Source: Thermoplasmatota archaeon
GTDB lineage: Archaea > Thermoplasmatota > JAKEGO01
Length of the DNA stretch: 64,000 nucleotides
Reading direction: 5' to 3'
Assembly (NCBI GenBank): GCA_028279595.1
Contig: JANQNK010000019.1
Span: forward strand, 33,965-97,964
Positions 10,371-62,874 of the stretch are shown here, in pieces (position 1 is the first letter of the stretch; each line of letters starts with the position of its first letter). The notes under the pieces were generated by a model. The model did no database searches, was not told where the DNA came from, and saw only the letters and a program-made list of their open reading frames with translations. The position numbers and the translations under genes are program-made.

Positions 10371-10558
10371 CAGTCCGTCCTTACGGCCTGAGGGTATATA
10401 AACGTTCTCTAAAAAAGAAACAGTAATAACAATGGGGTGCATTTATACTGACTGGACAAAACGTCTGCAATCGACGAAATTATGCCGAAAAATCGAAAAA
10501 ACGAGATTCAAATGTATCAAAATCACATGAAGGATTTTGACATTATATCTATCGGCAT

Positions 10559-10727
10559 GTGGGCCCGCTGAGACCCGGGCGCTTAAGACCTCATTGATCT
10601 AGAATTCTAACGCACGGGTAAGGCGGGGCTACGATTGTCAGAGTGCAAGAATTAGAGTGGGCTTGCCGAGACCGGACGCTTAAGACCTCATTGATCTCCC
10701 GTTATAACGTCCGGGCTAGATGGCCCG
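10559..10727. repeat. Two type-A hairpin units derived from the tRNA-Pro 3' end (10559-10632, 10657-10727)
   Basis: Both start GTGGGCYYGCYGAGA like the tRNA-Pro 3' end and share CGCTTAAGACCTCATTGATCT; flanking stems differ but remain paired. Confidence 0.75.
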
Positions 10728-10736
10728 TAGGGTCAT

Positions 10737-11003
10737 CGAGATTCGACCTAGATGAAGCTCCGCTTCATCAGGGTTTGTGAATGGTCGACATATCGAATAC
10801 AGCATTCACAAACACTCTGTTGAAGAGCGACTTCTTATCAAGGCGGGCCCGTCGCTAATTAATTAATTAGGAGTGGGCCCGCCGAGATTCGACCTGGATG
10901 AAGCGGAGCTTCATCAGGGTTCGTGAATGATCGAGAATTCAATTACTTCATTCACAAACACTCTGTTGGAGAGCGAGTTCTTATCAACGCGGGCCCATCG
11001 CTA
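10737..11003. repeat. Two ~120-130 nt type-B structured units adjacent to the tRNA-Pro 3' end (10737-10857, 10873-11003)
   Basis: Direct repeats: CGAGATTCGACCT-GATGAAGCnnnGCTTCATC-GTTYGTGAATG...CATTCACAAAC-ACTCT..AGAG-TTCTTATC-GCGGGCCC. Confidence 0.85.
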
Positions 11004-11019
11004 ACTCATTGATTCTGAG

Positions 11020-11134
11020 TGGGCCCGCGGAGATTCGAACTCCGGTATCCAGCTGTCCGTTTCATCGGAGGGAAGCGGCTCCCCTCTCTACGAACCCCGA
11101 GCTGGGAGGATGGACCAAGCTACCCTACGGGCCC
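11020..11134 (-). tRNA. tRNA-Pro with ~40-nt intron (anticodon GGG or CGG, ambiguous)
   Basis: GGGCCCG/CGGGCCC-A acceptor, CCAGC/GCTGG anticodon stem, CGGAG-TTCGAAT-CTCCG T arm; TATA box at about 11159-11167. Confidence 0.85.
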
Positions 11135-11347
11135 TTGTAATCAGTGGATACCTTTTCGATATATAAACTCGATGTCATGGTCCCATCCTCCAGCTCCCAC
11201 AAGCGCGATATTGTGTTTTGATGTGGCGGAGAAATTGCGACGATTGGTGGAACGAATATCAAGTGACGAGATCGGTCGACTGCCTGATGAATTTATGTCT
11301 AGAGGTCGGCCACGCGTCGACGGAGTACCGGTCGAATGGTTTGGAAA

Positions 11348-12454
11348 TCAGATCAGGAGTTCCCCATCCTTGATCACGGTCTCCCTGTCGCCATCCTCGT
11401 AGAGGAGGACGACCGTGGGCTCCTTGACAAGGCCGTCAAGATGTGTCAGCGCCTTGGCGTCCTCGTCGTAGTTGGAGCCGAGGGCGAAGTGGCAGGTCCG
11501 GAACACCTTCTCGTCCTCGAGCATGTTCCCGACGATCTCGGCTGCAGGGTTGAGACCGATGCCGAACTCTCCGATGCTGTACGTGTTCTTCGAATACGAC
11601 TCGGCGTCGGATGCCGAGATCTTGCCATCTTCCACGAACTGGAAAGGGAGCTTGGATGAGCGTTTCAGCGCAGCGTCCAGCAGCGTGGCTTCGAAGCCGC
11701 CGGCGATGTCGTAGGCGTAGCCATCCTTGACGTGTACGACGATGGGCTCCTCGGGAATGACCTCGCCTTCGGGTAGGGACATGACTCCGTCGAAGGCTAT
11801 CACGCCCTCCGACGTCCCGAGCTCTGGTGAAACGAACGTCTCACCTGCCGGAAGGTTCCCTCCAGTGCCGGGATCCCTGAAGTCACCATCGTCGGACTTG
11901 CCCTTCCTTCCGTTCAGTCCCACGGACAGGTCGGTGCCTCCCGGCGCGGTGATGTGGGCGGACACTCCTTTGTCTATCCGGCCCTTCAGTGTGGAGCTCC
12001 TTCGACGAAGCTCGTCGTAATCGATGGGGACGGTCTTGACGAACATCTCCGTCGTTACGCCTGGTGACCAGAACGACCTGGATATCTTCTCTCCGAGAAG
12101 GTAGGTGAAGATGTGGTCATATGTCTTCTCACCGGTCATGTACGGGGTCTTGAGTGCCTCCCTGTCCTTGCCGATCTTCTCGTGACTGATCGAGAGGATG
12201 ATGTCTGGCTCGGTCTTGAGAGCGGCGATCACGGCCGGCTCCGCGAAATCCAGCTGACCCTTCACCTTCTGGTAGACGAGGATCGGGGCACCGTCCAGGT
12301 CCATGCTCGCATCGAAGAGAGCCTCGGAAATGGCCTTTACGTTCTCCCTGGGATTGGTGACGATGAGTACAGATTCATCCTCCTTGAGCCCCATGACCTC
12401 GGACATGGCCACGTCTGCGGCCTTCCTTAGTTCGCCGTCAGCGCCGAACATCAT
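11348..12454 (-). CDS. Aminopeptidase, M29 (aminopeptidase T/leucyl) family
   Basis: [38 protein letters not shown]. Confidence 0.88.
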
Positions 12455-17056: not shown

Positions 17057-20000
17057 CTACTGCTTCAGGCGCAGGGTCGCGGCACACTTCTCGCACTTGA
17101 TCTCCAGCGGGCGCTTCGGATCCTTCACGTCGATTATGTTGCCGCACTTCGGACACTTCACCTTCACCGGCTTGGCTCCTGCTGGCGGGGCTGCTGCAGC
17201 TCCGGCCGCCGCTCCTGCTGCTGCCGCGGGGGCCGCTCCGGGTGCCGGAGGCGCTCCGGGCTTCGGAGGTTCGCCGGGCTTCCCGGGAGCCGCTGGCGGG
17301 GCGCCAGGTGTTCCGGGTGCCGGGGGCGCGCCGGGCTTCGCCGCGTCCTTCGCGGGCTCCTTGGCGGCCTCCTTCGGTTGGTCCTTCTTACGCCTGCCGC
17401 CGAAGAGCAGCATGCCGATCAGTATACCGAGTATCAGACCGCCCGCGAGCGATCCGCCGACGTACATCATCAGGTCTCCCGATGCGAGCTCGTCCGTCTT
17501 CTCGTCGAAGGTGTAGTCCTTCTTCACGTTGATCTCGATCGGCTGGGCGCCGGTGGTCTGGATCCGGATGCTCTGCTTGCCGTCCCCGACATTGTCCCAA
17601 TCGAAGGTCAGGTCCTCGAACCTGTCCGCACCGAGCTCCTCGATCGTGAAGGTGTCCTTGACGGTGCTGCCGATGAGGAACTTGACCTCCAGGTCCGCTA
17701 TCGGACCGGAGCCGTTGTTCCACACACGGACCTCGACGACCACATCGTCACCCTTCTCGACCGAACTCGGGCTCGTGTCGAGCTTGATGTCGTGCTTCGA
17801 GATGCGGATGTCGGCCGCGAGGACCGTGACCACGAAGGTCTCGGTCTGGGAAGTTCCGCCCTCGGAGGAGGACACGCGGATCTGGAAGGAGAGTGTACCC
17901 TCCCTCGCATCCTCGTCGGCCGTCAGCTCCATCTCGACGACCTCCTCACCATCAGGATCGATCTGGAACGTTGCCGGATCTCCCTTGTTCGCGAAGTCGA
18001 CGTCCAGGTCAGCGGACATTCCCAGCGTCTGCAGCTTGAAGGTGTCCTCGAAGTTACCCTCGTTGTGGATGGTTATCGGCACCTCGACGAGGTCCTGCTT
18101 GTCGAGTCCGGTCGGATCTATCTCGGCGGTGGTGATGTCGATGGTCAACTCGAACCCTGCCACCTTCTCCACCTCGAGGGTCACGTTCTGCCAGACCCTC
18201 GCCTGGGTGTCGCCCGGACCGCCGCCCTTTGACTCTATGGCGATCATGTAGGAGTACTTGCCCTCCTCCGCGTCGACAGGTATCGTACCGACGTCGAACT
18301 CGAGGAACACCGTGCCGGGCGTTCCCGTCTCCATGTCCTCGATGGTCAGCGAGGTCCCGGTTCCGGAGATATCCTCGTACTTGAGGCTCACCCAGCTCGT
18401 GTCACCGGGTATCAGGTTCGAGTCCTCGAGGTCGGGTGTCTCGAACACGCGGATCTCGATGTTGTCCGGGTCGTCGCCGGTGTTCTCCACGTCGAACTGT
18501 AGTGTCACGTTGTGGTCGTCCTGCTCGGGGCTCACCTTTGCGGAGGATGTCGAGAACGCCACCGAGATGGAGTACGACTTCTCCTCGACCTCGGTTCTGT
18601 AGTCGATGTCGATCCTCTCGTTGGAGTCGATGCTGGACGTTATCTGGATCTTCTCCGCGAACTCGTCGATCTCCTTGTCCTGGATGTCGTCCTTGTCCCC
18701 GGTGATGATGTAGTCGACGAGCTCCTCGCCTCCCACCTTGATGGGCACGTTGATCGACTTGCCCTTCTTCTCGACGCCCTGGGAGTCGATCCACAAGAGG
18801 TTTCCGTACTTCAGGTTCTCATCATCGGTCAGCCTTACCTTGGCGATGTCCACCTTGTTCCCGTAGTTCGATATCTTGAACGTGTAGGTGGTGTTACCAC
18901 CAGGTTCCACGGTCGTGTCGTCATCGAGGCGCTCCTCCTCGAGGTCCGCCTTGGTGTCGATGCCGACGGTCACTGTGAACATTTCCTCCTGGGTGTCGTC
19001 CTCTTGAGACTCGACGGTCACCTCGATGTCATAGTCGCCTGCCGGTACACGCCAGAGCTCGTTCTTCGTGTCGTCGATGTCCATCAGGATGTTGACGGTC
19101 AGCTTGGCCTGGTCGTCGATCATTCCGCTGACATCGAAGCTGTGGCTGATATCGAGGAAGCTGTTGTTGGTGTTGTAGCTCACGGAGTACTTGTCCTCGG
19201 AGATACCGGTGTTCCTCACGGTGATGTCGAAGTCTACGTCCTCATCCTCCTTGGGATCGGTGATCGTCTGCTTGAGCTGCGCCGGAAGGTCCAGCTCGAA
19301 CCTGTAGACGTCGATGACCGTGGCGGTTATCTTGTCGTCAGCGTCTCCGAACGGGAACGTCGAGCCGTCCTCAGCGACGAGAGAGAACTCGAAGGTGATC
19401 TCGTTGTCGTCGTCGGCGTCGAACTCGTCGAGGACCTCGTCGATGTCAGGGGTTATCTGCAGCTTCACGGTGACCTCGGTGTCATGGTTTATGTTGATGT
19501 CCTGGAGGCTGGAACCGGATTCCGCACCTCTCGCGAACACATACCAGTCGTTCGTCGGGGTCACCTTCGATGCGGAGATGTCGAACGTGTCGTCGCCGTT
19601 GCCCTTGTTGATCACGTTGATCTCGAACTCGGTCATCTCCTCGACCTTCACATCCTTCTCGTTCTGGTCGATGTTCAGGTCCAGGTTGTAGAACTGCTCG
19701 ACCGTGAAGTCGAAGTTGATGGTCTCGACGACGGTGGTGTTCCCGTTCGACAGGACGTCGACGATGAGCCTTGGCGTACCGGCCTCGATGTCCTTTGGCT
19801 GGCCCGTCCTGCTCATCGTGATCGTCACGTCGACCTGACCCGTCCTGTTGGATATCTTCGCTCCGGAGTATCCGGTGGTGGCGAACGATACCTTGCCCGG
19901 GAACGGGTTGGAGACCACGTCGACGGTGTATGCATCGTCCCTCGTTCCAGTGTTCTTTATTCGGAAGTTGAAATCGATCTCGTCCGTGCCCTCGTCGGGG

Positions 20001-23000
20001 TCGGGGTTCCAGTTGATGTTCACGTCGAGCGGCTGGAGCTCGAAGTCGATGGAGAACTCCTCTATGTTGAAGTTCAGGATGAAGGTCCGGACGACGTCGT
20101 TGTCGCCACGGGATGTCACTTCGATCTCGACCTCGTAGGAGCCGGTCTGGATGTCGTTGTCGTTCGCCGGCAGTGTCACCCTCACGTCGATCTCCTCCGA
20201 CTCGCCCGGCTGGACCTTCTGGCCGCCGTAGTCGATGGATACCTGCATCTTCTGAGGGCTCGAGAGCTTGAGGATGGTGTATGTATCCTCCCTCGTACCT
20301 TCGTTCTGTATCTCGAAGGCCAGTTCCGCCTCGTCGGCCGAGTTGGCATCGACGTCTATGTTGTCCTGTGTCTCGACGATCTCGAAGTCGAAGACGGCCT
20401 TGAACTCGACGGTCAGGTTGATGTAGTCCTCCTTGTCCTCGTCCTCGAGCGAGTATCCCTTGATCTGTATCCTGTCGCTCGCGAGGGTGTCATCGCCGTA
20501 CAGGTCCTCGATGGTGTCCCTGTTCGGTATCCTCACGGTCACGTTGACCGTGTGGGTGACACTCGCGTTCTCGAGGATGATGTCGATCTCATCGACGTTC
20601 TGCGTGTTCTTGTAGCTGAAGTAGGTGTAGGATGCGAGCTTACCATCGGACACGAGCAGGTGGACGGTGTCCTCGCCGTTGCCCTTGTTCTCCACGTTGA
20701 TCTGGAAGGTCAGGTTCTTCTCGAACCGGCCCGTCTTGGTATCGGCGGGTGACTGTAGGTCCAGGTCGTACAGTGTGTTCACCTTGACGGTGAAGTTGAA
20801 GTCCTCGGAGAGATCGGAGTCGCCCTGCGACCTGACGCGGAGCACCATGATGTACTCGAGGGACTCTGCGTCGTCCGGTACGTCGATGTCGATCTCGAAG
20901 GTCTGGAACGTTCCCTCGTTGACGGTGATCTGGTTCGCCATGCCGATGGTCCATTCGTCGCCGCCCTCGTTCAGAACGATCTGCAGGCCGTAGGTGTCAT
21001 CGTCGTTCCCCTCGTTCTCGAGGGTGATCTCGAATGTGACGTTGTCGCCCGCGTCGACCTCCTTCCTCTCGTCGCCGGTCACCCGGAACTTGTAGAACTG
21101 GTCGACGTCGATGTTGAGCTCGATCGAGTCGGTCTTCGTCTCGTCGCCTATCGACTGTACGGTCATGTTGATGTAGTGGGGTCCTGTCTCGATGTTCTCG
21201 CCGGATATCTTCTCCGGGACCGGAATTGTCAGGTAGACAAGGACAAGCTGTTCTGGATCGAGCGGCCCGATCTCCGTCAGGATGGTCCTGTTAATGTCGT
21301 CGTCGTCGAGATCGAACACGTCGGTGGAATTGCCCTCGAAGGACCATCCCGCCATCTCGTCAGTGAGCTCGAACGAGTAGGTGTCCTCGGCGTCCCCGGT
21401 GTTCTTGACACGAACGGTGAAGGTCACCGAGGTTCCCGGGTCTCCGACGATGGATGTGGTGAACGAATTGATCTCGACATCGAAGGTCTCGTCAATGACG
21501 ATGGTCAGGTTCATCACCCTGTGGCCGTCATCGTGCGAGACGTTCAGCTCGACGTAGTAGGTTCCGGGGTCCTCATCCTCGGGAACCTCGACCCAGACGT
21601 ATGCGAAGTCCTCCTCCTCGGGATCGAGGGTCATCGAGGACAGGGTCTGACCGCCTCCGTCTGCCTGGCTTCTGATGGACGCCCAATCCTGTTCCGTCCC
21701 CTGCTTAGCCAGGGAGAACACGTCGTTGCCGTTGCCTTCGTTCGATACCTTCACGACGAAGTCGAACTTGTCGCCCGGTTCGACATCCTGGGAAGGCCCG
21801 CTCGTGAAGAGCTCGACCTCGTGGAACTGGTCGACGTTCACTTCGATCACATCTGATGCGATGTCATTTCCCTTTCCATCGGATTCGAACTCGATGTCGA
21901 TGAAGTAATCGCCTTCCGCTGCGTCATCCATGTCGTTCGGCAATGTGATGTTGATGCCGAGGATCTCGTTCTCCTCGGGATCGAGCCTGACGCGGGAATC
22001 GTTCGCATCGAAGAAGCTGACGTCCCAGTTGGTCGGTATGTCGCCGAACGTCACGTTGAACGTGTCGGTGTGCGTTCCCTTGTTCGTGATCACTATGGAA
22101 TAGTTGATCATCTCACCCGGAAGGCCGGACTTCGGATTGATCTGGCCGATCTGGACCTCGTACTGGGGCTTGATCGACACGGTGAACATGACCGTATCGG
22201 TGACTGTAGGCTCCTTCTGACACGTCACCTTGAGGCCGATCTCGAAGTAGCCGTCGTTCTGGATCGTCGGGTTGATGTCCTCCCACTCGGGGAGCGTGAT
22301 GTTCAGGAAGGCGATCTTGTCGTCTCCCGCCTTGATGTTCGGGGAGACCGGTTCGTGCGTGGCCCACGACCTGCCCTGTCCGGTCTTGTTGACCCAGAAC
22401 CTGCTGTCGCCGGTCCCGATGTTGCTGATCTGGAGCTCGAAGTAGACCGTCTGCTCGGGCTCTACCTCGTCCCACACGTCGGAGCTTGTCAGGAAGAGCT
22501 CGTAGACCGGCTCGATCACGATGGTGAAGGTTATCTCCTTCACGATGTCGTCGGTGTCATCGTAGGCGGTCCCGTTCTCGGATGTGGCCTGGTATGTGAT
22601 GTTGAACGCTCCCAGGTCGATGTCCTCCTTCTCGGGGAGGTCCACCCTTATCGTCGACCTGTTGACCATGCCGGCTGTGATCGAGTGGGTGGTGTTGATC
22701 AGTGTGACAGTGGCCTCGGTCGGAAGCTCGCTGCTGACCTCCTCCATCTCGATCGAGTCAGGTCCAGTGCCCTTGTTCTCCACATTGATGTAGAAGTAGA
22801 CCGTGTTCTCGGGCTTGGAGCTGACCTGCTCGACAGGGGTCGTGAGTCCGATGTCGTAGAGCTGGTCCACGACGACGGTAACACCGGCCGTGTTATGGAA
22901 CACGCTGTTTCCCGGTCCGGTCGTCGCGTTGAAGTTGATCGCATAGGTATCCTCTGCCGCATCGTCCGGGGGTGTCACTGTGAGGGTCAGGTTCACATTG

Positions 23001-25291
23001 GAGTTCGCATCGATCTCGGGGTTGCCCTGACTGAACTCGTAGGTCCAATCGACGGCCGGGTTCGAGATCTCGATCTTGATGTTGTCCTCTCCGTTCCCTT
23101 CGTTGTGCAGCCGTACCGTGAATGTGATCGCCTCACCTGGATCGGCGTGCTGGCTGTCGACACCAGGGATCGTCACCTTGCAGTCGAACACCTGGTTCAC
23201 GTTGATGCTGACGTCGTAGGTATCGGTCGTCAGAAGGGTCGCCTTCGATATCGCCTCGACCGTTACCGCGTAGGTGTCGTCGAGCGCGTCCTCGCCGATC
23301 TCGATCTCGAGGACTATTATCGTCTCTTCGGCCTCATCGAGCACGATGGAGGACGGAGTGAAGGTGTAGAAGTCCCATCCGGTGGGTCTGACCGCATCGA
23401 ACTCGACGGTCGCCCTGTCGTTCCCGATGTTCTTGACCTGAAGGTCCACGTACACGGTGCCTTCGGGGTCGAGGTCGGATGTGGTCGCATTGATCGTTCC
23501 GGTCATGATGTCGAAGTCATAGTACTGGTCGACAGTGACCGTGAAGACCAAGGGGGCGGAATAACTGCTGTCGCCCATCTGGGCCCGAACCGTCCACTGG
23601 TAGTCGCCTGCGGTGTACTCGACCGGTACCTTAACCGAGAACTGGATCTCGGCCGATTCGTCCGGGTCCAACTCGATGCTGGTCGGGCTGAAGGTTATCG
23701 AGCCCCAGCCGGTGGAATCCTCGTCGACGTATTCGAACGTAAAGGTATCCTGCCTGTTACCATCATTGGTGATGGTGAAGTTGAATCCGATCACCTTCGC
23801 CTGGTTCTGGATGTCCACTGCCTTGTTCGCCTCACCGTAGGTCCCTATCTCGACTCCGTAGTCCTGATCGACCTCGACAGCTAGGGCGAGCGGGATCGAT
23901 GATACCGACTCGTCACCAGTGGATGTCGCGTTGCAATACACGTTGTGGGGTCCATAGGACGCATCCTCGTGCACGTAAACACGCAGGGTGAGGGTGTCCT
24001 GCGAGTTTCCTGCGACCGTGAGGGTGGCCGACGGATCGAAGTTGAATCCCCAATCCTCGGGTACTTGGGCGAGCATGCTGAACGTGTCCTCGCCGTTCCC
24101 GTCGTTCACCACTGTAATGGTGGCGTTGCCCCATTCGCCTGGCATGATCTTTCCAGAAGGAGCGGTACCTTCGAGATGCACGTCGAATATCTGGTCCACC
24201 TCGGTGGATAGGACGATCGAGGTATTGGTGCCCTTTCCAACCTCCGGCACGATCACGACTGTCGTGTCGATCGTGGTATCCGCGAGTGCATCGTCGTCAG
24301 GCTGGACCTTGACGTTGATCACCCTTTCGTCGCTCTCGTCCAGGGTGAACGACGACGGGTTGATCGAAAAGGTCCATGGTGAGATGTCCTCGACGATGGT
24401 GACATCGAAGTCGACCCTTACATTCCCGGAATTGTTGAATGTGAGGTTGTACTCGATCCACTCGTTGGGAAGGCCGTTCTTCGCCGCATCGTCCACCGTG
24501 ATGGAATATGTGTAATCCTCGTTCACGGTGATGTTGATCTGTGCGGTCTCGGAGTCGCTGCCCTGAACCGATTCAGCGTTGAATATCAACGAATACTTCT
24601 TGGCCGTCGCGTACCGGCCGATCGTAACCTGGACAGGTACTGGCTTCGACGCTCCGGCTGCCAGCGAGTGGAGCTCGCCGAATGTGGTCGTAAGGTCTCC
24701 CGGGGTCTGGGTCAGGTTGATCTGGATCTGATCGTCACCGTTCCCGTAGTTGAAGATCCTCAGATTGAAGGAGACATCTTCCGATACGTTCCCGAACCTG
24801 CTGTCCGATCCGATGACGACGATGTCGACATCGTCCTCGAAGAGGATGTCGGTCCTGAAGTATATCGGAGCCTCCTCTGTACCATTAGTATTTGTTATGG
24901 TCACGTAAGTCTCCTCGTAATCACCGACCTCTGCGTCAGCAGGGGCTGTGATCTTCACGGAGGTGTACTTCCAACCGGAGTTGGTCACGTGCCAGCTGGA
25001 TACACCGCCGACGAACTCGTTGGACCAATCCGTGGTCGGAGTGCTGAGTGAAAGACTGATATCCGTCTCATATGGAGACGAACCGTCCTTCGTCAATCGC
25101 ACACCCACCTGGTATGTCACCGACTTGTTGGCTTCGACTTCCTTGTTGGCGCTGTCGACCGACGTAGCGTCGTTATCGACGTCAGCAACAGCGTTCCCGG
25201 TGGTCATCATCAGGAACACGAATCCAACAACTAACAATCCTGCGAGCACCAAGAGTGCTCGTGTTCTCCCGTTTTTCTGGGCAAACATCAA
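17057..25291 (-). CDS. Giant acidic cell-surface protein: ~20 COG1470/NPCBM-assoc Ig-like repeats, CARDB domain, TM helix, Pro/Ala linker, C-terminal Zn ribbon
   Basis: Signal peptide; recurrent N-x-G-[NT]-x2-D every ~110 aa; TM YVGGSLAGGLILGILIGMLLF; CPKC...CEKC. Confidence 0.85.
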   Translation of the reverse strand: MMFAQKNGRTRALLVLAGLLVVGFVFLMMTTGNAVADVDNDATSVDSANKEVEANKSVTYQVGVRLTKDGSSPYETDISLSLSTPTTDWSNEFVGGVSSWHVTNSGWKYTSVKITAPADAEVGDYEETYVTITNTNGTEEAPIYFRTDILFEDDVDIVVIGSDSRFGNVSEDVSFNLRIFNYGNGDDQIQINLTQTPGDLTTTFGELHSLAAGASKPVPVQVTIGRYATAKKYSLIFNAESVQGSDSETAQINITVNEDYTYSITVDDAAKNGLPNEWIEYNLTFNNSGNVRVDFDVTIVEDISPWTFSINPSSFTLDESDERVINVKVQPDDDALADTTIDTTVVIVPEVGKGTNTSIVLSTEVDQIFDVHLEGTAPSGKIMPGEWGNATITVVNDGNGEDTFSMLAQVPEDWGFNFDPSATLTVAGNSQDTLTLRVYVHEDASYGPHNVYCNATSTGDESVSSIPLALAVEVDQDYGVEIGTYGEANKAVDIQNQAKVIGFNFTITNDGNRQDTFTFEYVDEDSTGWGSITFSPTSIELDPDESAEIQFSVKVPVEYTAGDYQWTVRAQMGDSSYSAPLVFTVTVDQYYDFDIMTGTINATTSDLDPEGTVYVDLQVKNIGNDRATVEFDAVRPTGWDFYTFTPSSIVLDEAEETIIVLEIEIGEDALDDTYAVTVEAISKATLLTTDTYDVSINVNQVFDCKVTIPGVDSQHADPGEAITFTVRLHNEGNGEDNIKIEISNPAVDWTYEFSQGNPEIDANSNVNLTLTVTPPDDAAEDTYAINFNATTGPGNSVFHNTAGVTVVVDQLYDIGLTTPVEQVSSKPENTVYFYINVENKGTGPDSIEMEEVSSELPTEATVTLINTTHSITAGMVNRSTIRVDLPEKEDIDLGAFNITYQATSENGTAYDDTDDIVKEITFTIVIEPVYELFLTSSDVWDEVEPEQTVYFELQISNIGTGDSRFWVNKTGQGRSWATHEPVSPNIKAGDDKIAFLNITLPEWEDINPTIQNDGYFEIGLKVTCQKEPTVTDTVMFTVSIKPQYEVQIGQINPKSGLPGEMINYSIVITNKGTHTDTFNVTFGDIPTNWDVSFFDANDSRVRLDPEENEILGINITLPNDMDDAAEGDYFIDIEFESDGKGNDIASDVIEVNVDQFHEVELFTSGPSQDVEPGDKFDFVVKVSNEGNGNDVFSLAKQGTEQDWASIRSQADGGGQTLSSMTLDPEEEDFAYVWVEVPEDEDPGTYYVELNVSHDDGHRVMNLTIVIDETFDVEINSFTTSIVGDPGTSVTFTVRVKNTGDAEDTYSFELTDEMAGWSFEGNSTDVFDLDDDDINRTILTEIGPLDPEQLVLVYLTIPVPEKISGENIETGPHYINMTVQSIGDETKTDSIELNIDVDQFYKFRVTGDERKEVDAGDNVTFEITLENEGNDDDTYGLQIVLNEGGDEWTIGMANQITVNEGTFQTFEIDIDVPDDAESLEYIMVLRVRSQGDSDLSEDFNFTVKVNTLYDLDLQSPADTKTGRFEKNLTFQINVENKGNGEDTVHLLVSDGKLASYTYFSYKNTQNVDEIDIILENASVTHTVNVTVRIPNRDTIEDLYGDDTLASDRIQIKGYSLEDEDKEDYINLTVEFKAVFDFEIVETQDNIDVDANSADEAELAFEIQNEGTREDTYTILKLSSPQKMQVSIDYGGQKVQPGESEEIDVRVTLPANDNDIQTGSYEVEIEVTSRGDNDVVRTFILNFNIEEFSIDFELQPLDVNINWNPDPDEGTDEIDFNFRIKNTGTRDDAYTVDVVSNPFPGKVSFATTGYSGAKISNRTGQVDVTITMSRTGQPKDIEAGTPRLIVDVLSNGNTTVVETINFDFTVEQFYNLDLNIDQNEKDVKVEEMTEFEINVINKGNGDDTFDISASKVTPTNDWYVFARGAESGSSLQDININHDTEVTVKLQITPDIDEVLDEFDADDDNEITFEFSLVAEDGSTFPFGDADDKITATVIDVYRFELDLPAQLKQTITDPKEDEDVDFDITVRNTGISEDKYSVSYNTNNSFLDISHSFDVSGMIDDQAKLTVNILMDIDDTKNELWRVPAGDYDIEVTVESQEDDTQEEMFTVTVGIDTKADLEEERLDDDTTVEPGGNTTYTFKISNYGNKVDIAKVRLTDDENLKYGNLLWIDSQGVEKKGKSINVPIKVGGEELVDYIITGDKDDIQDKEIDEFAEKIQITSSIDSNERIDIDYRTEVEEKSYSISVAFSTSSAKVSPEQDDHNVTLQFDVENTGDDPDNIEIRVFETPDLEDSNLIPGDTSWVSLKYEDISGTGTSLTIEDMETGTPGTVFLEFDVGTIPVDAEEGKYSYMIAIESKGGGPGDTQARVWQNVTLEVEKVAGFELTIDITTAEIDPTGLDKQDLVEVPITIHNEGNFEDTFKLQTLGMSADLDVDFANKGDPATFQIDPDGEEVVEMELTADEDAREGTLSFQIRVSSSEGGTSQTETFVVTVLAADIRISKHDIKLDTSPSSVEKGDDVVVEVRVWNNGSGPIADLEVKFLIGSTVKDTFTIEELGADRFEDLTFDWDNVGDGKQSIRIQTTGAQPIEINVKKDYTFDEKTDELASGDLMMYVGGSLAGGLILGILIGMLLFGGRRKKDQPKEAAKEPAKDAAKPGAPPAPGTPGAPPAAPGKPGEPPKPGAPPAPGAAPAAAAGAAAGAAAAPPAGAKPVKVKCPKCGNIIDVKDPKRPLEIKCEKCAATLRLKQ

Positions 25292-25322
25292 TATCCCTCA
25301 GCCCTCAACTAAATACACACCG

Positions 25323-25353
25323 AATATAAACGTTGTGGTTAACATGTCACAAC
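25323..25353 (-). promoter_or_regulatory. TATA box and adjacent inverted repeat GTTGTG-N10-CACAAC upstream of the giant surface protein gene
   Basis: TTTATATT about 35 nt upstream of the start; 6-bp inverted repeat at 25332-25353. Confidence 0.45.
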
Positions 25354-25588
25354 AATTTAAAGTTCTAATTAAATAATTAAAGAATTAATTATGAATAGAT
25401 TGGTTAATAACCTTTATATTATTTTACTATTTTTTTATATTTCTCTTAATTTTCCACGATTTTAGGCGATTTTCGGGGTTGAAATCGGCCCGATTTCGGG
25501 CCCTTTTTCGGATGTCTGTCTACCCCCAAGGTGTTGTGGTGTTTCTGAATAAGAGACAGATGTCCGTTAATTGACGAATTCCAAGCCG

Positions 25589-26491
25589 CTAGAAGGAGAT
25601 CTTTCCGCCCTTTTTGAGCTCTTCGAGGGTCTTGTCCTCCACTTTTTCGAGCTCCTTCTTGTCCGTGAGGGCCTTGTCGACCGCCTTCGCCTGGTCCTTT
25701 ATGACCTTGCGGGCCTGCTGTCTCTCGTCGCGGTCCTCCTTCTTGAGCGAGAGCACCTTCGAGCGCATCTCGAGGGCCTTCTGATGCTGGGCATCGGCCT
25801 TCTTCTTGACCTCGATGAACTCGGCGTGCTTCTTGTTGGCCTCGATTATGAGATAGCTGACGGAATTGTAGATCTCGACGACCTGCTCGTGGAACGTCTG
25901 GGAGTCCTGGTAGTACTGGACCACGTAGGTGTGCTCCTCGTCGGCCTTCTTGAAGAGGTCGTCTATGGAGGCGTTCAGGGAATCGAGGTCCTCTATGATG
26001 CTCTCCTGGTCCACGAGGTTCTTCTGCATCTCGATGTACTGGTGCATCTTGTCCCTGATCTTGTCTATGAGGTCCTTCTCGGCGGACAGGGACATGGGTA
26101 CGGTCTGCTGCTTGAGCTCCAGGGACTTGATCTCGGCGTCCAGTACCTGGACGTCCTTCGGGAGCGCCCTGTTGAGGTTCTTGTTCCTCTCCCGCTTCTC
26201 CTCGATCATGGACCTGGCCTTTGACTGGTACTCGTTCCTGCGCTTCTTGTGCTCGCGCATCTTGCGGACGAGTGCGTCCCTCTCGGCCTTCAGCTTGTCA
26301 ACGCCCGCCAGTGCGTTCTTCCTCTCCTCGTTGAGGGCGTCCCTCTCCTCCCGGAGGAGCCTGGCATCGGCGTTCAGCTCGTTCCGACGGTCGATAATGG
26401 ACTGGTGGACCTTCTCGGCGCTCTGTATGGCCTTGCGCCTCTGCTGACCCTTGTCGTCCTCGGCGTCCTTCTCGCGTTTCCGTCGTGGCAC
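25589..26491 (-). CDS. Archaeal coiled-coil protein (COG1340-like)
   Basis: R-D/N-ELN heptad repeats, LELKQQTVPMSL..EKDLI, terminal LKKGGKISF; GTG start after a TATA-like box. Confidence 0.78.
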   Translation of the reverse strand: MPRRKREKDAEDDKGQQRRKAIQSAEKVHQSIIDRRNELNADARLLREERDALNEERKNALAGVDKLKAERDALVRKMREHKKRRNEYQSKARSMIEEKRERNKNLNRALPKDVQVLDAEIKSLELKQQTVPMSLSAEKDLIDKIRDKMHQYIEMQKNLVDQESIIEDLDSLNASIDDLFKKADEEHTYVVQYYQDSQTFHEQVVEIYNSVSYLIIEANKKHAEFIEVKKKADAQHQKALEMRSKVLSLKKEDRDERQQARKVIKDQAKAVDKALTDKKELEKVEDKTLEELKKGGKISF

Positions 26492-26525
26492 GGGCCGAGA
26501 CAAGAACTCTATCCATAAAAACGTT

Positions 26526-26722
26526 TGGCTGGAGGGATCGGACATACCCGAGGAGCTGTCGTTACATATCGGACGGGTGCGCTCACGGGATTCATATGCG
26601 GGGCGCTGTGCCAGGAACTGAGGGCCCTGGCGCGCGCCCCGCACGAGTGGTACCGTGGCCTCCCCCCCGTTCGGACGGACGTTGTCGACCCAAGAGGGGA
26701 CGAACCGACGGATTTCAGGCCA
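26526..26722 (+). ncRNA. Candidate ~200-nt rod-like structured element (ncRNA or MITE-like)
   Basis: Nested stems GCCAGG/CCTGGC, TGCGGGGCGC/GCGCCCCGCA, TCACGG/CCGTGG, TCGGACGGG/CCCGTTCGG, GTCG/CGAC, TCGG/CCGA, GGCTGGAG/TTTCAGGCC. Confidence 0.45.
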
Positions 26723-26758
26723 AAAACGTTTATATCGTAGCCCACGTTAGACGGAGGG

Positions 26759-27441
26759 ATGAGCGCAGTAGAGGATGCGTTGGAGGCGCTGAAGAGGGGC
26801 GAGTTCGTGCTCGTCTTCGATGCGCCCGACAGGGAGGGCGAGACCGATCTGATAAAGGCGGCCATACACACGCAGCCAGAGGACATATCCAGGATGCGGA
26901 ACGACGGCGGCGGCCTCATATTCATGATGGTCGGCCACGAGACCTCCGAGAAGCTGGGGCTTCCCTTCCTTTCGGACCTCTTCTATCGAGAGGGCGGGCG
27001 TTATCCGGTCCTCAAGGAACTGATACCGAACGACATCCCCTACGACACGAAATCGTCGTTCTCGGTGCCTATCAACCACAGGAAGACGTTCACGGGCATC
27101 ACAGACGTAGATCGCTCCCTCACCGTACGCAGGTTCGGCGAGATGGCCGACGAGATACCAGACCTCACCCCAGCGAAGGCCCAGAGGGTCTTCGGCCAGG
27201 AGTTCCGCGCTCCGGGGCACGTGGCGATCTGCAGAGCGTCCGAGCATCCCCTCAGGGACCGGTTCGGACATACAGAACTGGGTGTCGCACTCATGATCAT
27301 GGCTGGATTCACTCCCGTGGCCGTAGGCTGCGAGATGATGACCGAGGGAAAGGCCCTTCCGCCGGAGGAGGCAAGGAAGTACGGCGAGGAGAACGGGCTC
27401 ATGTTCCTCGAGGGCAAGGAAGTTCTGGGGGCCTGGAGAGA

Positions 27442-27454
<13 letters not shown>
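26759..27454 (+). CDS. ribB: 3,4-dihydroxy-2-butanone-4-phosphate synthase
   Basis: DREGETD, SSFS..INHRKTFTGITDVDR, FRAPGHV, GHTE, CEM. Confidence 0.93.
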
Positions 27455-28370
<916 letters not shown>

Positions 28371-28379
28371 GGTGATGAG

Positions 28380-28790
28380 ATGAAACTGGCGTTCGTCATA
28401 TCCGAGTTCAACTATGACGTCACGATGATGATGCTGGAGCGGGCGAGGGAGCACGCTACGTTCCTGGGAGCCGAGGTCAGCCACGAGGTGACCGTTCCCG
28501 GGGTCTTCGACATGCCCCTGGCCATCAAGGCGCTCCTGGAAAGGAACGACGTCGATGCCGTCGTGACCCTGGGCGCTGTCATCGAGGGAGAGACCGAGCA
28601 CGATGATATCGTGATCGGCCATGCCTCGCGCAAGATCGCCGATCTGGCTACACAGTTCGGGAAACCAGTGACCCTCGGGATCACCGGACCCGGAATGAGC
28701 AGGCTCCAGGCGGAGGCGAGGATCGAACGCGCAAAAACGGCCGTCGAGGGCGCCGTCAAGATGCTCAAGAGGCTCGACAGCATCGAGTGA
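28380..28790 (+). CDS. ribH: 6,7-dimethyl-8-ribityllumazine synthase
   Basis: SEFN, VPGVFDMP, LGAVIEGETEH, KPVTLGI. Confidence 0.93.
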   Translation: MKLAFVISEFNYDVTMMMLERAREHATFLGAEVSHEVTVPGVFDMPLAIKALLERNDVDAVVTLGAVIEGETEHDDIVIGHASRKIADLATQFGKPVTLGITGPGMSRLQAEARIERAKTAVEGAVKMLKRLDSIE

Positions 28791-28867
28791 GCATATCTGT
28801 AGATCCATATCCGGCAGCGAAGCTGCCATGTTTTGAATGAGATCGTTCTGGACCCAAGGGACCTAGC

Positions 28868-29527
28868 CTAATGCCCGGTATCCAGGTCGCCGGCGAAGAT
28901 GACCTCGACCTTCTCAATGTCCCATAGGCGGTCGAGACGCTCGTGGATCTCCTCGTTGATGTTCTCCGCGAACGGGTGGTCGGCGTCGAGGCCGACGGTG
29001 ACCGTTATCTCTCCATCCTTGACTCCGACACCGGTCACGAGGTTCATCTTTACGATGTCCAGACCGGTTATCGGGTTCATCACATGGGTGAGCCTCGAAA
29101 GGACCACCTCGGACGTCGTCTCGATGAGTTCCTCTGGCGGTATGAGCCCGTGCGTCTCCTCGTAGGTCCTGATCGCCTCGCGAAGCGTCTCGACGGCCAG
29201 CACCGAGCAGTGCGCCTTCACCGATGGCAATCCGCCGAGCTCGTCCGAGGCCGACTTCCAGTCTATCTCCTTCGCCTCGTCGAGGGTCTTCCCCTTGGCC
29301 ATCTCCGTGATTATGGAACCGGTCGCGATGTTCGAGGCGCAACCGTACGACTCGAAGGAGATGTCCTCGATGACCAGAGTGTCCGGGTCGACCTTCAGAT
29401 AGAGGGTCACCATGTCACCGCACGCTGGACTCCCTTCGGTAGCCTTCGCGTCGGCCTCGTCCAGGCAGCCCACGTTCTGGGGGTTCTTGAAGTGCTCCAT
29501 CAGCTTGTCTGTATACTTCAGGACCAT
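28868..29527 (-). CDS. IscU/NifU-N Fe-S scaffold fused to a DUF59 (SufT/MIP18-like) domain
   Basis: EHFKNPQNVG, ACGD, YGCAS, KAHCS; C-terminal L..V.NP..GLDIV.MNLV. Confidence 0.85.
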   Translation of the reverse strand: MVLKYTDKLMEHFKNPQNVGCLDEADAKATEGSPACGDMVTLYLKVDPDTLVIEDISFESYGCASNIATGSIITEMAKGKTLDEAKEIDWKSASDELGGLPSVKAHCSVLAVETLREAIRTYEETHGLIPPEELIETTSEVVLSRLTHVMNPITGLDIVKMNLVTGVGVKDGEITVTVGLDADHPFAENINEEIHERLDRLWDIEKVEVIFAGDLDTGH

Positions 29528-29637
29528 GGGCGTCGATTCCCAGACCCCTTTATTAATGTTGGTCCTATAAAGTTGACAAGACGTTATGTCCAGAGCCTGC
29601 GCTGTACTTAGGATACTAGTTTCGGTGGACCATGCGA

Positions 29638-30957
29638 TCATTCTACGAATACGATGGTCGAATCGGTGCTGGCGTACAGCCCTGAGCCGTCGTCGTCTGG
29701 ATCGGCGATGGACACATACACGATGAAGTCGCTTCCGCGGTCCTCGTATTCGTAATCATTGTCCGCGTTCTCGCCGTAGTCAAAACGCTCGTTATCGCTC
29801 TCCTGCTCCGGGAAGGTCCAGACTATATCGGCATCGTCCTTGTCGGTGCTGGTGTCGATGTCGCCCTTGTTCTCGTCCATGTAGTGGACCTCGAAATAGA
29901 CGGTGTCCTCACCCGCGAAGGGCGGGTTCGCCGTCTGGTTTGGTCCAGCGTCCACGAGTGGTCTCGCGTTGTAGTATGTCTCCGGCAGTTCGATGTCGAC
30001 CTCGTGGATGTCAGAGGATTCGATGACGGGATTGTGTATTGTGGCCTCGACGGTGAAGTTCCCTGGACTGTTGTAGTCGAGCTGGAACGGGTAATAGTAA
30101 CCCCGGAAGACGTTGTCCTGCCATATCCACTCGAGGATGTCCACACCCGTATCGCTATCGAGGAGGGTCGTGCCATCGTACAGTCTGATGTCGATCATCG
30201 TCCCCGGGAGTATGTCCGAGACCGGTTCTTCCTCCTCTCCGAAGATTAGTGTTCCAAAGACGCCGTATTCAGGCACCTCTGTGTCGGTGTAGTCCCATTT
30301 TCCATAGTCCACGGTCCATCGGGCCTCGACATTGGAGAGCTCACCGGTGAATGCGAGTGCGTTGCAGAAGTAATACGTCGTCGCGCTCTTCCCTTCCGCG
30401 GTCACTACGACCTTGTAGGAGCCCGGTTCGTCCAGGAACTCATCGTACGGGATGACCTTGGAACCTTGATCGTTGCTCATGGATATCGAGCCGCGGTAGG
30501 TGGTCTCGGACGTATCCTCGTATGTGATCTTGATGTTGGCGGACCCGCTGAAGCTGGAGTCGCCCAGGCTTTCTGTGACGACGAAGACCTCGAGGCCGAC
30601 GTCGGTGGCGTTCCAGGCGGTCTCCTGGGCGTTGATGCGTACCGCATCGACGCCGCTCTCGCCGTACATGAAGTATATCATGGACGCGGCGATGAGTACC
30701 ACGACGATACCGACCACGAAAAGGAGCATGAAGAGCTTCGATCCCATTATCTTGCCGATGAAACCCGTCTTCTCAGCAGGGGGTGGAGCAGCCGGTGCCT
30801 CGACGGGCGCCTCCGCAGGTGCTTCCGCGGGAGCCTCTGCCGCTGGCGGGGCCTCCTGGACGGGGGCTGCAGCCTCCTCCTCTCCGGCTATGCTTATGGC
30901 TGGCTCTTGCTGTGTCTCAGAACCGGGCATCGATGGCCCGCCGATAGGGACCTCCAT
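29638..30957 (-). CDS. Single-pass membrane protein with N-terminal Pro/Ala-rich tail and acidic extracellular region ending in a PKD-like domain
   Basis: APAEAP repeats, TM LFMLLFVVGIVVVLIAASMIYF, NARPLVDAGPNQT. Confidence 0.7.
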   Translation of the reverse strand: MEVPIGGPSMPGSETQQEPAISIAGEEEAAAPVQEAPPAAEAPAEAPAEAPVEAPAAPPPAEKTGFIGKIMGSKLFMLLFVVGIVVVLIAASMIYFMYGESGVDAVRINAQETAWNATDVGLEVFVVTESLGDSSFSGSANIKITYEDTSETTYRGSISMSNDQGSKVIPYDEFLDEPGSYKVVVTAEGKSATTYYFCNALAFTGELSNVEARWTVDYGKWDYTDTEVPEYGVFGTLIFGEEEEPVSDILPGTMIDIRLYDGTTLLDSDTGVDILEWIWQDNVFRGYYYPFQLDYNSPGNFTVEATIHNPVIESSDIHEVDIELPETYYNARPLVDAGPNQTANPPFAGEDTVYFEVHYMDENKGDIDTSTDKDDADIVWTFPEQESDNERFDYGENADNDYEYEDRGSDFIVYVSIADPDDDGSGLYASTDSTIVFVE

Positions 30958-30970
30958 GGGACCACCTTCG

Positions 30971-31879
30971 TCAGAGATCCTCCATACGCCGATTGCTGAA
31001 TACCAGCATGGCAACGGCAATGCCAGATACCATGATCAGCGGATCGTAGGCTGGCAGGTAGACACCCTTCTGTCTCACGTAAAGCGAGTACATCATGAAG
31101 ACCTCGGCGTCCGGGTTGGAGAGCCTGCTCTTGTCGGAGTAGACCTTGACGTTTACTGGGGAGACCTTGTTCTTCCAGAGTGTCCAGTCCTGCGGGCTGG
31201 TCAGCTGGATCTTGAACGGGCGAACGCCCTTCTCCTCGATGGTCTGCTTCGGGACCGTCGGTATGGTCCATCCCTCGTCTGAAAGTGACTTCTGGTTGGT
31301 GATCTCGATGACGAAATCGTCCTCGTCGTTCCCCATGTTCCATATCTTCATGCTGAACGTCAGGTCGTCGCCCGGGTTGATCTCGGTGAGCGGGTTGTCC
31401 GACTCGAGGATCAGCTTGAAGTACTGGTCGATGAACACGATCATGGATGTCGAGTCGACGTCACCGACGAGACCCTCAGCACCGGTCCACGATCCACCGA
31501 CCACGACATTCTGCGAGACCTTGTGACTGGTCCCGGGTGGTGCGCGAACGGTGATGGAGAACGGTTTCGAGCTCGTTCCCGCGGGGAAGGTCATACTTGA
31601 CGGGGTAATTGCAGCGCCCCATCCACCTGCAGAGATGGTCAGGGCGACCGTGACCTGCGTCTGGCTTCCCGAATCGCATGAGATTGTCCCTGTATTCTTG
31701 ACGATGCCATTGCCGGAACCGCCAGGAGTGACGTCAGCATTCTTGCTGGAATCGTCGAATGCCGCGGACACCACCGGTATGATGGTACCCTGTCCTTCCG
31801 CTTCCTGTGGGATCGCGATTATCGCAACGGCGGCCACGAGGACAACGAGCATGAGCGCAATGCAGATTCTTCTCATCAA
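30971..31879 (-). CDS. Secreted surface protein, choice-of-anchor T-like domain plus Ig domain, PGF-CTERM-like tail
   Basis: Signal peptide, ADVTPG, NMGNDEDDF, tail LPAYDP + TM + RR. Confidence 0.65.
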   Translation of the reverse strand: MMRRICIALMLVVLVAAVAIIAIPQEAEGQGTIIPVVSAAFDDSSKNADVTPGGSGNGIVKNTGTISCDSGSQTQVTVALTISAGGWGAAITPSSMTFPAGTSSKPFSITVRAPPGTSHKVSQNVVVGGSWTGAEGLVGDVDSTSMIVFIDQYFKLILESDNPLTEINPGDDLTFSMKIWNMGNDEDDFVIEITNQKSLSDEGWTIPTVPKQTIEEKGVRPFKIQLTSPQDWTLWKNKVSPVNVKVYSDKSRLSNPDAEVFMMYSLYVRQKGVYLPAYDPLIMVSGIAVAMLVFSNRRMEDL

Positions 31880-61688: not shown

Positions 61689-62429
61689 TCACTTGTTGAT
61701 CGGCCTCAGGACGTAAACTGCGAATCCGAGATATTCCCGGCCGTACTCGAGGTACAGGTCCTGGTTCTTCCTCATCCAATCGATGACCTGCTGTCTGTCG
61801 GGATGATCCGGATTGTGGTCGAGCCAATGGTTGAGACCGCGCCAGTTGTTCGATTCGTAATTATCCCAGCCCTGCTCGCTAGAGCGTATCATGTACTCCA
61901 GGTCGAACCCTTCCTCGCGTGCGATCCTAAGTATCCCCATCTCGTTCGTGAAGCCCGGATTCTCGTTCAGGTACTCCTCGGGAACTGGTTCCTTCCTCCA
62001 GTACGGCTCACCAACGATGAGCTTGCCTCCGGGTTTGAGGGCGTCAATCATGCCTTGGAGGGTGTTCCGGAACCCGCCCCATATGAAGGATGCGCCGATA
62101 CACATGGCATGATCGTAGGAGTTGGGTTCGAACTCGAACTCCTTTCCATCACCCTTCACTATCTCGATGCGGTCGGAGAGACCCTCCCTTTCGAGGATCT
62201 CGCGGGCGCGGCGGACGGATTGGTCCCGGACGTCGACCCCGGTCCCTGTGACCCCGTATGCCTTCGACCAAACGGCAAGGAACTTGCCACAGCCGCAGCC
62301 GAAATCGATCAATCTGTCGTCCTCGTCAAGCGCGAGGACCTCGCCCAGCTTGATCACCTGATCTATGGTAAGTGGATTGATTATCTCCATGAACGGTTCG
62401 CAAAGGTCATATATCTTCATCTCTTCCAT
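61689..62429 (-). CDS. Class I SAM-dependent methyltransferase
   Basis: LIDFGCGCG, GVD, CIGASFIWGG, LKPGGKL.VGE. Confidence 0.9.
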   Translation of the reverse strand: MEEMKIYDLCEPFMEIINPLTIDQVIKLGEVLALDEDDRLIDFGCGCGKFLAVWSKAYGVTGTGVDVRDQSVRRAREILEREGLSDRIEIVKGDGKEFEFEPNSYDHAMCIGASFIWGGFRNTLQGMIDALKPGGKLIVGEPYWRKEPVPEEYLNENPGFTNEMGILRIAREEGFDLEYMIRSSEQGWDNYESNNWRGLNHWLDHNPDHPDRQQVIDWMRKNQDLYLEYGREYLGFAVYVLRPINK

Positions 62430-62480
62430 GGTATCACTCGGGTAACATCGGACAATGTCTCATAAGCGTTTTGGATTTTA

Positions 62481-62755
62481 TGGGGGGAGGGACCAGGGAT
62501 TCCACAAGTCGGATACGATATGGAATCTCTGGGCTAGTCGATTCCCGCGGTAAGGGAATCGACGTCTGCAAGAGTCTTCGAGCACTACCACCTGGGTACA
62601 GACTCGAATTGACGAGAAGGTGGTGGTGCGGGGGAAGGGCTCGACTTCAATGATGCTTCGCATCATTTCGGTTCGGAAACATATTGAATGATGTTGGGAA
62701 TCAGTTTCCGAACACCCTACGCTAGGGCTAGGGTTCTTATCCACCCGACGCACCA
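62481..62755. repeat. Structured units adjacent to the tRNA-Leu 3' end (type-B unit 62624-62755; type-A-like hairpins 62481-62563)
   Basis: 62624 TGGTGCGGGGGAAGGG duplicates the tRNA-Leu 3' end; same hairpin order and TTCTTATC motif as the tRNA-Pro units. Confidence 0.75.
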
Positions 62756-62786
62756 TTCCTCCAAGTACTCATTAATTAAAACGGAA

Positions 62787-62874
62787 TGGTGCGGGGGAAG
62801 GGATTCGAACCCCCGAACCACTAAAGGACGGGATCTTAAGTCCCGCGCCGTTGGCCAGGCTTGGCTACCCCCGC
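62787..62874 (-). tRNA. tRNA-Leu(TAA), CCA encoded
   Basis: GCGGGGG/CCCCCGC-ACCA, CGGGA-CT-TAA-GA-TCCCG, long variable arm, TTCGAAT T loop. Confidence 0.95.

Follow-up and report, generated by a model that had tools for sequence, protein, structure and literature searches.

tRNA genes are classic landing sites for mobile DNA, and to our knowledge what has been described at them consists either of large integrase-bearing islands or of the unexplained tRNA-linked repeats of Escherichia coli. The latter (TLRs; Egan and Landy 1978, Rudd 1999) are short gene-less units, often in tandem, that lie directly behind tRNA or rRNA genes and close with an 18- to 19-bp copy of the upstream gene's 3' end. 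Their function is largely unknown; three that lie behind 5S rRNA are processed small RNAs in which the repeated 3' end guides cleavage (PMC8144298). These repeats are the closest known class to the family of archaeal modules described here: placement behind the gene and a terminal copy of its 3' end, 12 to 24 bp in the archaeal modules, are common to both. Compared by description, the two differ in that PMC8144298 reports neither a mirror copy nor a shared four-way hairpin core, and in that the TLR host is bacterial. What is new here is the combination of tiny conserved cassettes, arms tailored in both orientations to each tRNA, and signs that tRNA 3' ends, including the encoded CCA, have been overwritten.

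The window that we analyzed is a 64,000-nt stretch of contig JANQNK010000019.1 of an uncultured Thermoplasmatota archaeon, whose genome assembly (the source genome, G000) is 2.29 Mb and 86% complete. Features are collected in Table 1. Reading the minus strand 3' of tRNA-Leu(UAA), a 31-nt AT-rich spacer is followed by a 132-nt unit (62755 down to 62624) that starts with TGGTGCG, continues through three hairpins and ends with the last 16 nt of the tRNA. A first-pass annotation of the window had described this unit as a copy of an element, type B, that is also present at tRNA-Pro, with both outer arms matched to the host tRNA. Its sequence claims hold: the 16-nt identity is exact (62624-62639 = 62787-62802; chance expectation of ∼7e-8 for an exact 16-mer within 300 nt), TTCTTATC is present at 62734-62741 and in both tRNA-Pro copies, and CGCACCA at 62749-62755 is perfectly complementary to the final 7 nt of the right arm, ACCA included. 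The shared three-hairpin core was likewise recovered by a covariance model, R1, built from 12 copies, which scored 96.4 bits (E 3e-26) at Leu and 102.5 bits for the Pro copies.

Table 1. Coordinates of the tRNA-Leu(UAA) array and of related loci (window positions unless a contig of the source genome is named)
Feature	Position	Strand	Evidence
tRNA-Leu(UAA) gene with encoded CCA	62787-62874	-	ARAGORN, Rfam RF00005, alignment of Leu tRNAs
Palindrome left half	62783-62812	-	partner of 62731-62759 in minimum-energy fold of 62624-62812
23-nt AT-rich loop (spacer)	62760-62782	-	conserved between Leu(UAA) and Leu(UAG) copies
Mirror arm, decayed inverted copy of 30-nt tRNA tail	62731-62759	-	minimum-energy fold
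Hairpin 1	62714-62734	-	fold, covariation
Hairpin 2, long stem with GTTYG start, CRAAC end and variable loop	62671-62713	-	compensatory changes in 9 of 10 pairs
Hairpin 3, C-GAA-G triloop	62642-62670	-	compensatory changes in 10 of 11 pairs
Right arm, exact 16-nt direct copy of tRNA-Leu 3' end including CCA	62624-62639	-	
Outer module, type C (separate family)	62470-62623	-	aligned with four other type-C copies
Two type-B copies behind intron-bearing tRNA-Pro(GGG)	10727-11018	-	R1 covariance model
tRNA-Leu genes with common 16-nt tail	C1:11674-11760, C5:30656-30743, C14:117647-117733 (all G000), window 62787-62874		

Taken alone, the 132-nt unit adopts a four-way junction, in which 7 bp between its two arms form the closing stem (z = -6.3 with DNA and -5.3 with RNA parameters; none of 200 shuffles was equally stable). 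When the unit was refolded together with the last 26 nt of the tRNA, a different partner emerged for the left arm. With the tRNA gene tail and its four trailer bases the mirror arm forms 11 perfect bp (62749-62759 with 62783-62793), versus 7 bp with the right arm, and in the minimum-energy fold ∼24 bp join mirror arm and tRNA tail, leaving the right arm free. The tRNA-side half of this palindrome comprises the T-stem 5' strand, the T-loop, the T-stem 3' strand, the acceptor 3' strand, ACCA and the four trailer bases (TTCC). In the mirror arm the outer 11 nt, CGCACCA among them, are perfect, while the inner part contains TTCTTATC, a decayed mirror of the T-loop whose changes are common to the Pro and Leu(UAA) copies. 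Thus, the fold-back geometry that had been proposed is real, but the best partner is the tRNA gene's own tail rather than the unit's right arm; the pairing with ACCA is real as well, and reflects nothing beyond the copying of a genome-encoded CCA. The preference extends across the family. Among 18 units, the upstream tail copy gave the longer match to the mirror arm in nine, an equal match in nine and a shorter one in none, and in the Pro array the mirror arms carry the single-base variant of their left neighbor, not that of their own right arm. The fit to the upstream tail indicates that the natural module is a tail–loop–mirror hairpin, then the core, then the displaced tail. Spacer motifs such as TTTCAT and ATTRGAG recur in the spacers at other tRNAs, and the hairpin-1 stem tracks the host T-stem across the family (ACTC/GAGT at Pro, ACCC/GGGT elsewhere).

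The right arm is identical to the host tRNA over 12 to 24 nt, and in nearly all copies it starts at the same place, the second T of the T-loop, following host variants of this sequence (TCGAAT, TCAAAT, TCGATT). Such a constant start is a sign of a defined cut or crossover. Between the left arm and its own host the match spans 8 to 10 nt, compared with a median of 4 nt across the remaining 44 tRNAs, and the host came out best in 10 of the 13 correctly windowed copies. Such host specificity implies that the mirror arm was templated or selected, as had been surmised from the Leu copy. The view that plain att-site duplication would account for the direct arm only is also supported. A second arm that tracks tRNA identity is therefore a property of the family overall, although a few copies deviate; right arms are decayed or foreign in some distal or composite copies (Pro unit 2, Thr, Ser-GGA unit 2 and Lys-UUU). 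In G021, a low-GC genome, the left arm mirrors the T-loop, T stem and acceptor strand almost in full, and in the source genome it consists of a perfect outer segment and a decayed inner one. Where the tRNA gene encodes no CCA, both arms end 1 to 2 genomic bases past the discriminator and never contain a CCA complement. Since trailer bases, not CCA, are copied at these genes, the template must have been genomic DNA and not mature tRNA, which also excludes a retro origin with the mirror arm as a primer-binding site. Nor does the left arm copy the 5' acceptor strand of the tRNA, as it runs on into T-stem, discriminator and CCA complement.

Searches with BLAST and R1 located 16 to 17 type-B copies in the source genome, all directly 3' of tRNA genes, on the tRNA strand and in a single orientation. 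Their hosts are Leu-UAA, Leu-UAG, Pro-GGG (two), Lys-CUU (two), Cys (two), Gly-GCC, Gly-UCC, Arg-UCU, Thr-CGU, Ser-GCU, Ser-GGA and Lys-UUU. Of two additional copies, one lies at a contig end and the other is separated by 5 kb from tRNA-Arg(UCG), where it stands at the distal end of an integrase element. Module types A, C and D have the same layout as type B, the units being ∼100 to 160 nt long and gene-less, and mini-modules stand behind at least 18 of the 45 tRNA genes (about 40%). In a genome-wide control, a copy of the last 12 nt of the tRNA (at most one mismatch) was found within 300 nt downstream of 14 of the 45 tRNAs and upstream of none, and a mirror copy within 80 nt downstream of 10 and upstream of 1. 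Five arrays combine types B and C (Leu-UAA, Leu-UAG, Gly-GCC, Arg-UCG and Arg-GCG of a second genome, G001), and in each type B lies between the tRNA and type C. The tRNA-Pro(GGG) gene of the window (about 11019-11134, minus strand) has a 38-nt intron; it was missed by default ARAGORN and by the Rfam gathering search and was found only with long introns allowed. The second Pro unit (window 10700-10745) and the Thr unit (L002:about 250-290) have a B-A composite in common, the internal junction of which, a short palindrome, has no match among the tRNA tails of the source genome and may be a relic from a previous host.

Among 41 genomes of the phylum, tRNA-linked copies in the same orientation were also present in G001 (the MAG Thermoplasmata archaeon PMV_4.75, 73% complete), G002, G009 and G021, and the other 36 gave no family match. 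All three genomes searched from the class of the source genome (G000, G001 and G002) are positive; G021 and G009 belong to other classes of Thermoplasmatota. One JGI metagenome contig bears a B-A-A-A module array with Arg(UCU)-like tail copies at its end, the tRNA lying past the contig end, and a strict scan of the collections for the hairpin-3 motif matched only G001 contigs and one metagenome contig. Core identity between loci of the source genome is only 45 to 70%, the tandem Pro copies alone reaching 84%. By eye, the G001 cores at His, Arg(UCU) and Pro are far more alike than any cross-tRNA pair of the source genome, despite their differing arms, a similarity that indicates spread or homogenization across tRNA loci. 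The family is apparently undescribed: our literature search found no archaeal account of such modules, Rfam matched only true tRNAs (the window at the gathering threshold, 12 unit-holding loci at E up to 1), and a mechanical 92-aa ORF across modules had no Pfam match. Copies stand exactly at contig ends in G001 (C92, C182, C74 and C121) and in the source genome (ends of C1 and C15), so module repeats apparently break MAG assemblies at tRNA loci. The modules thus both confuse tRNA annotation and break assemblies.

We next consider the fold. Over 29 copies, standard pairs fill 94.9% of the cells and 20 of 25 pairs show compensatory changes. Compensated cells number 128 against 30 expected, a count reached by none of 500 shuffles, and in slid controls pairing drops to between 32 and 48%. 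The covariation means that the hairpins are under constraint. The paired cells divide into 654 Watson-Crick, 13 G-T, 4 A-C and 32 other (93% Watson-Crick, 1.8% G-U), and sense and antisense strands fold with energies of -50.3 and -51.0 kcal/mol, respectively, with no asymmetry (Wilcoxon P = 0.69). The 13 G-T versus 4 A-C mismatches on the tRNA strand amount to a slight excess, which leans weakly toward a strand-specific folded form. About 20 of the 29 copies carry a GNA triloop (C-GNA-G) in hairpin 3, and this triloop is characteristic of DNA mini-hairpins of very high stability. The tandem Pro copies (10746-10774 and 10892-10920) differ by an exact inversion of the hairpin-3 loop, TCC versus GGA, with the stem unchanged; this is a DNA-level hairpin flip.

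The Leu genes bear a trace of what such modules may do to their hosts. Four of the five tRNA-Leu genes of the source genome end in the same 16 nt, the encoded CCA included, even though their T-stem 5' strands differ, a comparison of T stems that rests on a hand-checked Leu set. In tRNA-Leu(UAA) the T stem reads GGGGG / CCCTT, and its two G-U pairs are there because of the common tail. The Leu(UAA) gene of G001 has a perfectly paired T stem, no CCA and no module. The outer type-C module of the window, which has its own mirror arm and two hairpins, still holds an older version of the tail: its truncated right arm retains CCCTC, the T-stem version that is also found in G001 tRNA-Leu(UAA). This pattern of tails, with the older copy outside, is what would be expected if incoming elements bring the tRNA a replacement 3' end and displace the previous one outward, and as read from these sequences it suggests that tRNA 3' ends have been overwritten by inserted elements. 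No filled and empty alleles with matching flanks were found; Leu(UAA) is module-free in G001 and G021, but the flanking genes differ, and the exact insertion borders are therefore unreadable. The decayed right end of the type-C module reaches the likely promoter of a methyltransferase gene (61689-62429).

The source genome encodes seven tyrosine recombinases, six of them directly behind tRNA genes. Four integrase elements are bounded by direct repeats, at Pro-UGG (14.5 kb), Ala (10.2 kb), Arg-UCG (5.3 kb) and Trp (8.7 kb). The repeats of the Pro, Ala and Trp elements start in the T-loop, and that of the Arg-UCG element is the right arm of a type-A/C mini-module. All four elements are positioned between the tRNA and older mini-module arrays, which implies entry at the tRNA-proximal position of a pre-existing array. 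The same T-loop-to-3'-end site thus serves modules and integrase elements alike. No integrase was found beside the Leu or Pro arrays, none of the G001 contigs yielded a tyrosine recombinase (73% completeness), and across the 41 genomes tRNA-adjacent tyrosine integrases and modules did not co-occur. Serine recombinases (PF00239, PF07508) were not found in G000, G001 or G002. Two integrase elements, ∼90% identical by eye, lie directly behind tRNA-Leu(GAG) and tRNA-Leu(CAA) (C1:about 10100-11673 and C5:about 29100-30655), and for neither could the far end be located within 40 kb or the contig. A TIR-domain protein (L041:1427-2098, plus strand; C7:8726-9397) adjoins the integrase of the 14.5-kb tRNA-Pro(UGG) element and is possible defense cargo.

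We tentatively favor, while holding it short of probable, the reading that the Leu(UAA) unit is a non-autonomous, gene-less cassette that docks by a hairpin-forming attachment region at the T-loop-to-3'-end site of tRNA genes, the site that resident tyrosine-integrase elements also use. Such a cassette would consist of the AT-rich loop, the mirror of the tail, two or three conserved hairpins and a direct tail copy starting inside the T-loop, and tail, loop and mirror could join in one long hairpin or cruciform. Cassettes would pile up with the newest adjoining the tRNA, each entering one bringing the new 3' end of the tRNA and displacing the old one outward. They would be moved in trans by a site-specific recombinase, for which the resident tyrosine integrases are the only candidates detected. 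The architecture, the matching of arms to hosts, the fixed T-loop junction, the covariation, the order of stacking and the use of one site by modules and integrase elements are observed; the enzyme, the single- or double-stranded state of its substrate and the way in which arms come to match a new tRNA are parts of this model that we infer. Arguing for docking are the tRNA-only placement in one orientation, the fixed T-loop start, integrase elements at the same site, the overwritten 3' ends, the fit of the mirror arm to the upstream copy, the alike cores of G001, and stems that are almost purely Watson-Crick, fold equally well on both strands and carry the GNA triloop in hairpin 3. Arguing against it, no recombinase is linked to the cassettes, the integrase elements lack the mirror arm, alleles filled and empty within the same flanks did not appear, and the weak G-T over A-C excess leans toward a strand-specific fold. 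The low core identity between loci gives no sign of recent movement in the source genome. A T-loop crossover, moreover, needs a cassette that already bears the right tail, which leaves the colonization of a new tRNA unexplained, and the constant position of type B inside type C could mean that the two form a composite or functional unit instead of having accreted freely.

Known mobile systems resemble the modules in part. The att duplications of tyrosine-integrase elements, and CIMEs, which are cis-mobilizable remnants lacking an integrase, show the same T-loop-to-3'-end direct repeat, tandem stacking and element-borne tRNA 3' end, and integrase-bearing elements use the same site in the source genome. 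Unlike these systems, the modules are ∼100 to 160 nt and gene-less, with a conserved covarying core instead of random remnants, and they carry a host-matched mirror arm that is absent from the resident integrase elements. Integron attC sites and the attP of CTX phage act in folded form. The modules are like them in that an imperfect palindrome, once folded, would rebuild a double-stranded site, and like integrons in that small cassettes are stacked at one fixed primary site, newest first; they differ in having no link to an IntI-type or Xer recombinase and no conserved core or inverse-core sites, and in arms that vary by tRNA. By analogy with attC and attP, the palindromic attachment region may act folded, perhaps through single-strand chemistry. 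We consider it unlikely, if worth stating, that the modules form an undescribed class of folded-DNA docking cassettes in which the mirror arm, within one strand or a cruciform, rebuilds the double strand of the target tail and both arms are re-templated at each tRNA, making the cassette self-retargeting; if so, it would be an archaeal, tRNA-anchored counterpart of integron cassettes or of CTX-type hairpin integration. If the cassettes are mobile, how two arms come to match a new target is a puzzle, and the answer might offer a natural design for programmable site-specific docking.

Several other explanations bear on the same data. An RNA-level element, co-transcribed with the tRNA or transcribed from the AT-rich spacer and serving either as a small RNA with a defined structure or in processing or termination, would make sense of the strong covariation, of the constant placement on the tRNA strand and of the slight surplus of G-T (13 versus 4), and its tail copy would recruit the tRNA 3'-end machinery, for which processed E. 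coli tRNA-linked repeats are a precedent (PMC8144298). It would define a new class of tRNA-linked archaeal RNA. G-U pairs, however, make up just 1.8% of the paired cells, both strands fold equally well, Rfam holds no match, and the arms copy DNA trailer bases; a mirror arm in the transcript would compete with the tRNA's own folding, and hairpin-3 loops can flip (TCC versus GGA in the Pro copies). We regard this reading as somewhat unlikely. The arms themselves might instead be the footprint of fold-back repair, in which hairpin-primed synthesis mends breaks made at the attachment site of the tRNA: a 3' end would snap back on a short palindrome and copy the tail backward, yielding the mirror arm. 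The short loop directly before that arm, the trailer bases within it, and its better pairing with the upstream copy, as far as the T-stem 5' strand, all agree with such a route. But repair of this kind cannot make conserved, covarying hairpins common to several genomes and classes, nor does it account for the conservation of spacer motifs or for the fixed point in the T-loop at which the right arm is joined. As a full account it is decidedly unlikely, and at best it explains how arms are templated within the docking model.

The first-pass annotation had also pointed to an RNase P/RNase Z-type substrate, that is, a tRNA-like gene or minihelix cut by these enzymes and CCA-tailed. The arms can indeed close a 7-bp stem on a four-way junction, and the right arm is a tRNA 3' end. 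The units nevertheless go uncalled by ARAGORN and by the tRNA covariance model RF00005 (E up to 1, 12 loci); the closing stem pairs through discriminator and CCA, leaving no unpaired 3' tail; there is half a T-loop only, with no T-stem 5' strand and hence no T-arm; the alternative pairing with the tRNA gene tail is more stable; and the stems, 93% Watson-Crick with 1.8% G-U, fold equally well on either strand. As the units are not tRNA-like, we consider such a substrate very improbable, and that part of the proposal is not supported. The palindromic, hairpin-rich architecture might further suggest repeats moved by a REP-type (RAYT or IS200-like) transposase, or miniature derivatives of casposons, which target tRNA 3' ends. 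REP, BIME or REPIN repeats and MITEs are, like the modules, short, non-coding, hairpin-forming and multicopy, but those repeats are dispersed between genes with fixed ends and are often near-identical, whereas the modules are all tRNA-anchored, have host-specific ends and 45 to 70% identical cores, and never lie scattered among ordinary genes. Unlike REPINs, they come with no RAYT-type gene that we could find, and Y1 transposases (PF01797) were not found in G000, G001, G009 or G021 (73 to 94% complete), with one in G002. Unlike MITEs, they have no fixed terminal inverted repeats or short fixed target duplication. Casposon target duplications are 14 to 15 bp, as against module repeats of 12 to 24 nt, and no Cas1 (PF01867) was found in the five genomes searched. 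We hold an origin of this kind to be extremely improbable.

Elsewhere in the window, the minus strand at 17400-31400 contains a very long one-frame region of diverged repeats in an about 48-nt register, which suggests a giant repeat-domain surface protein.
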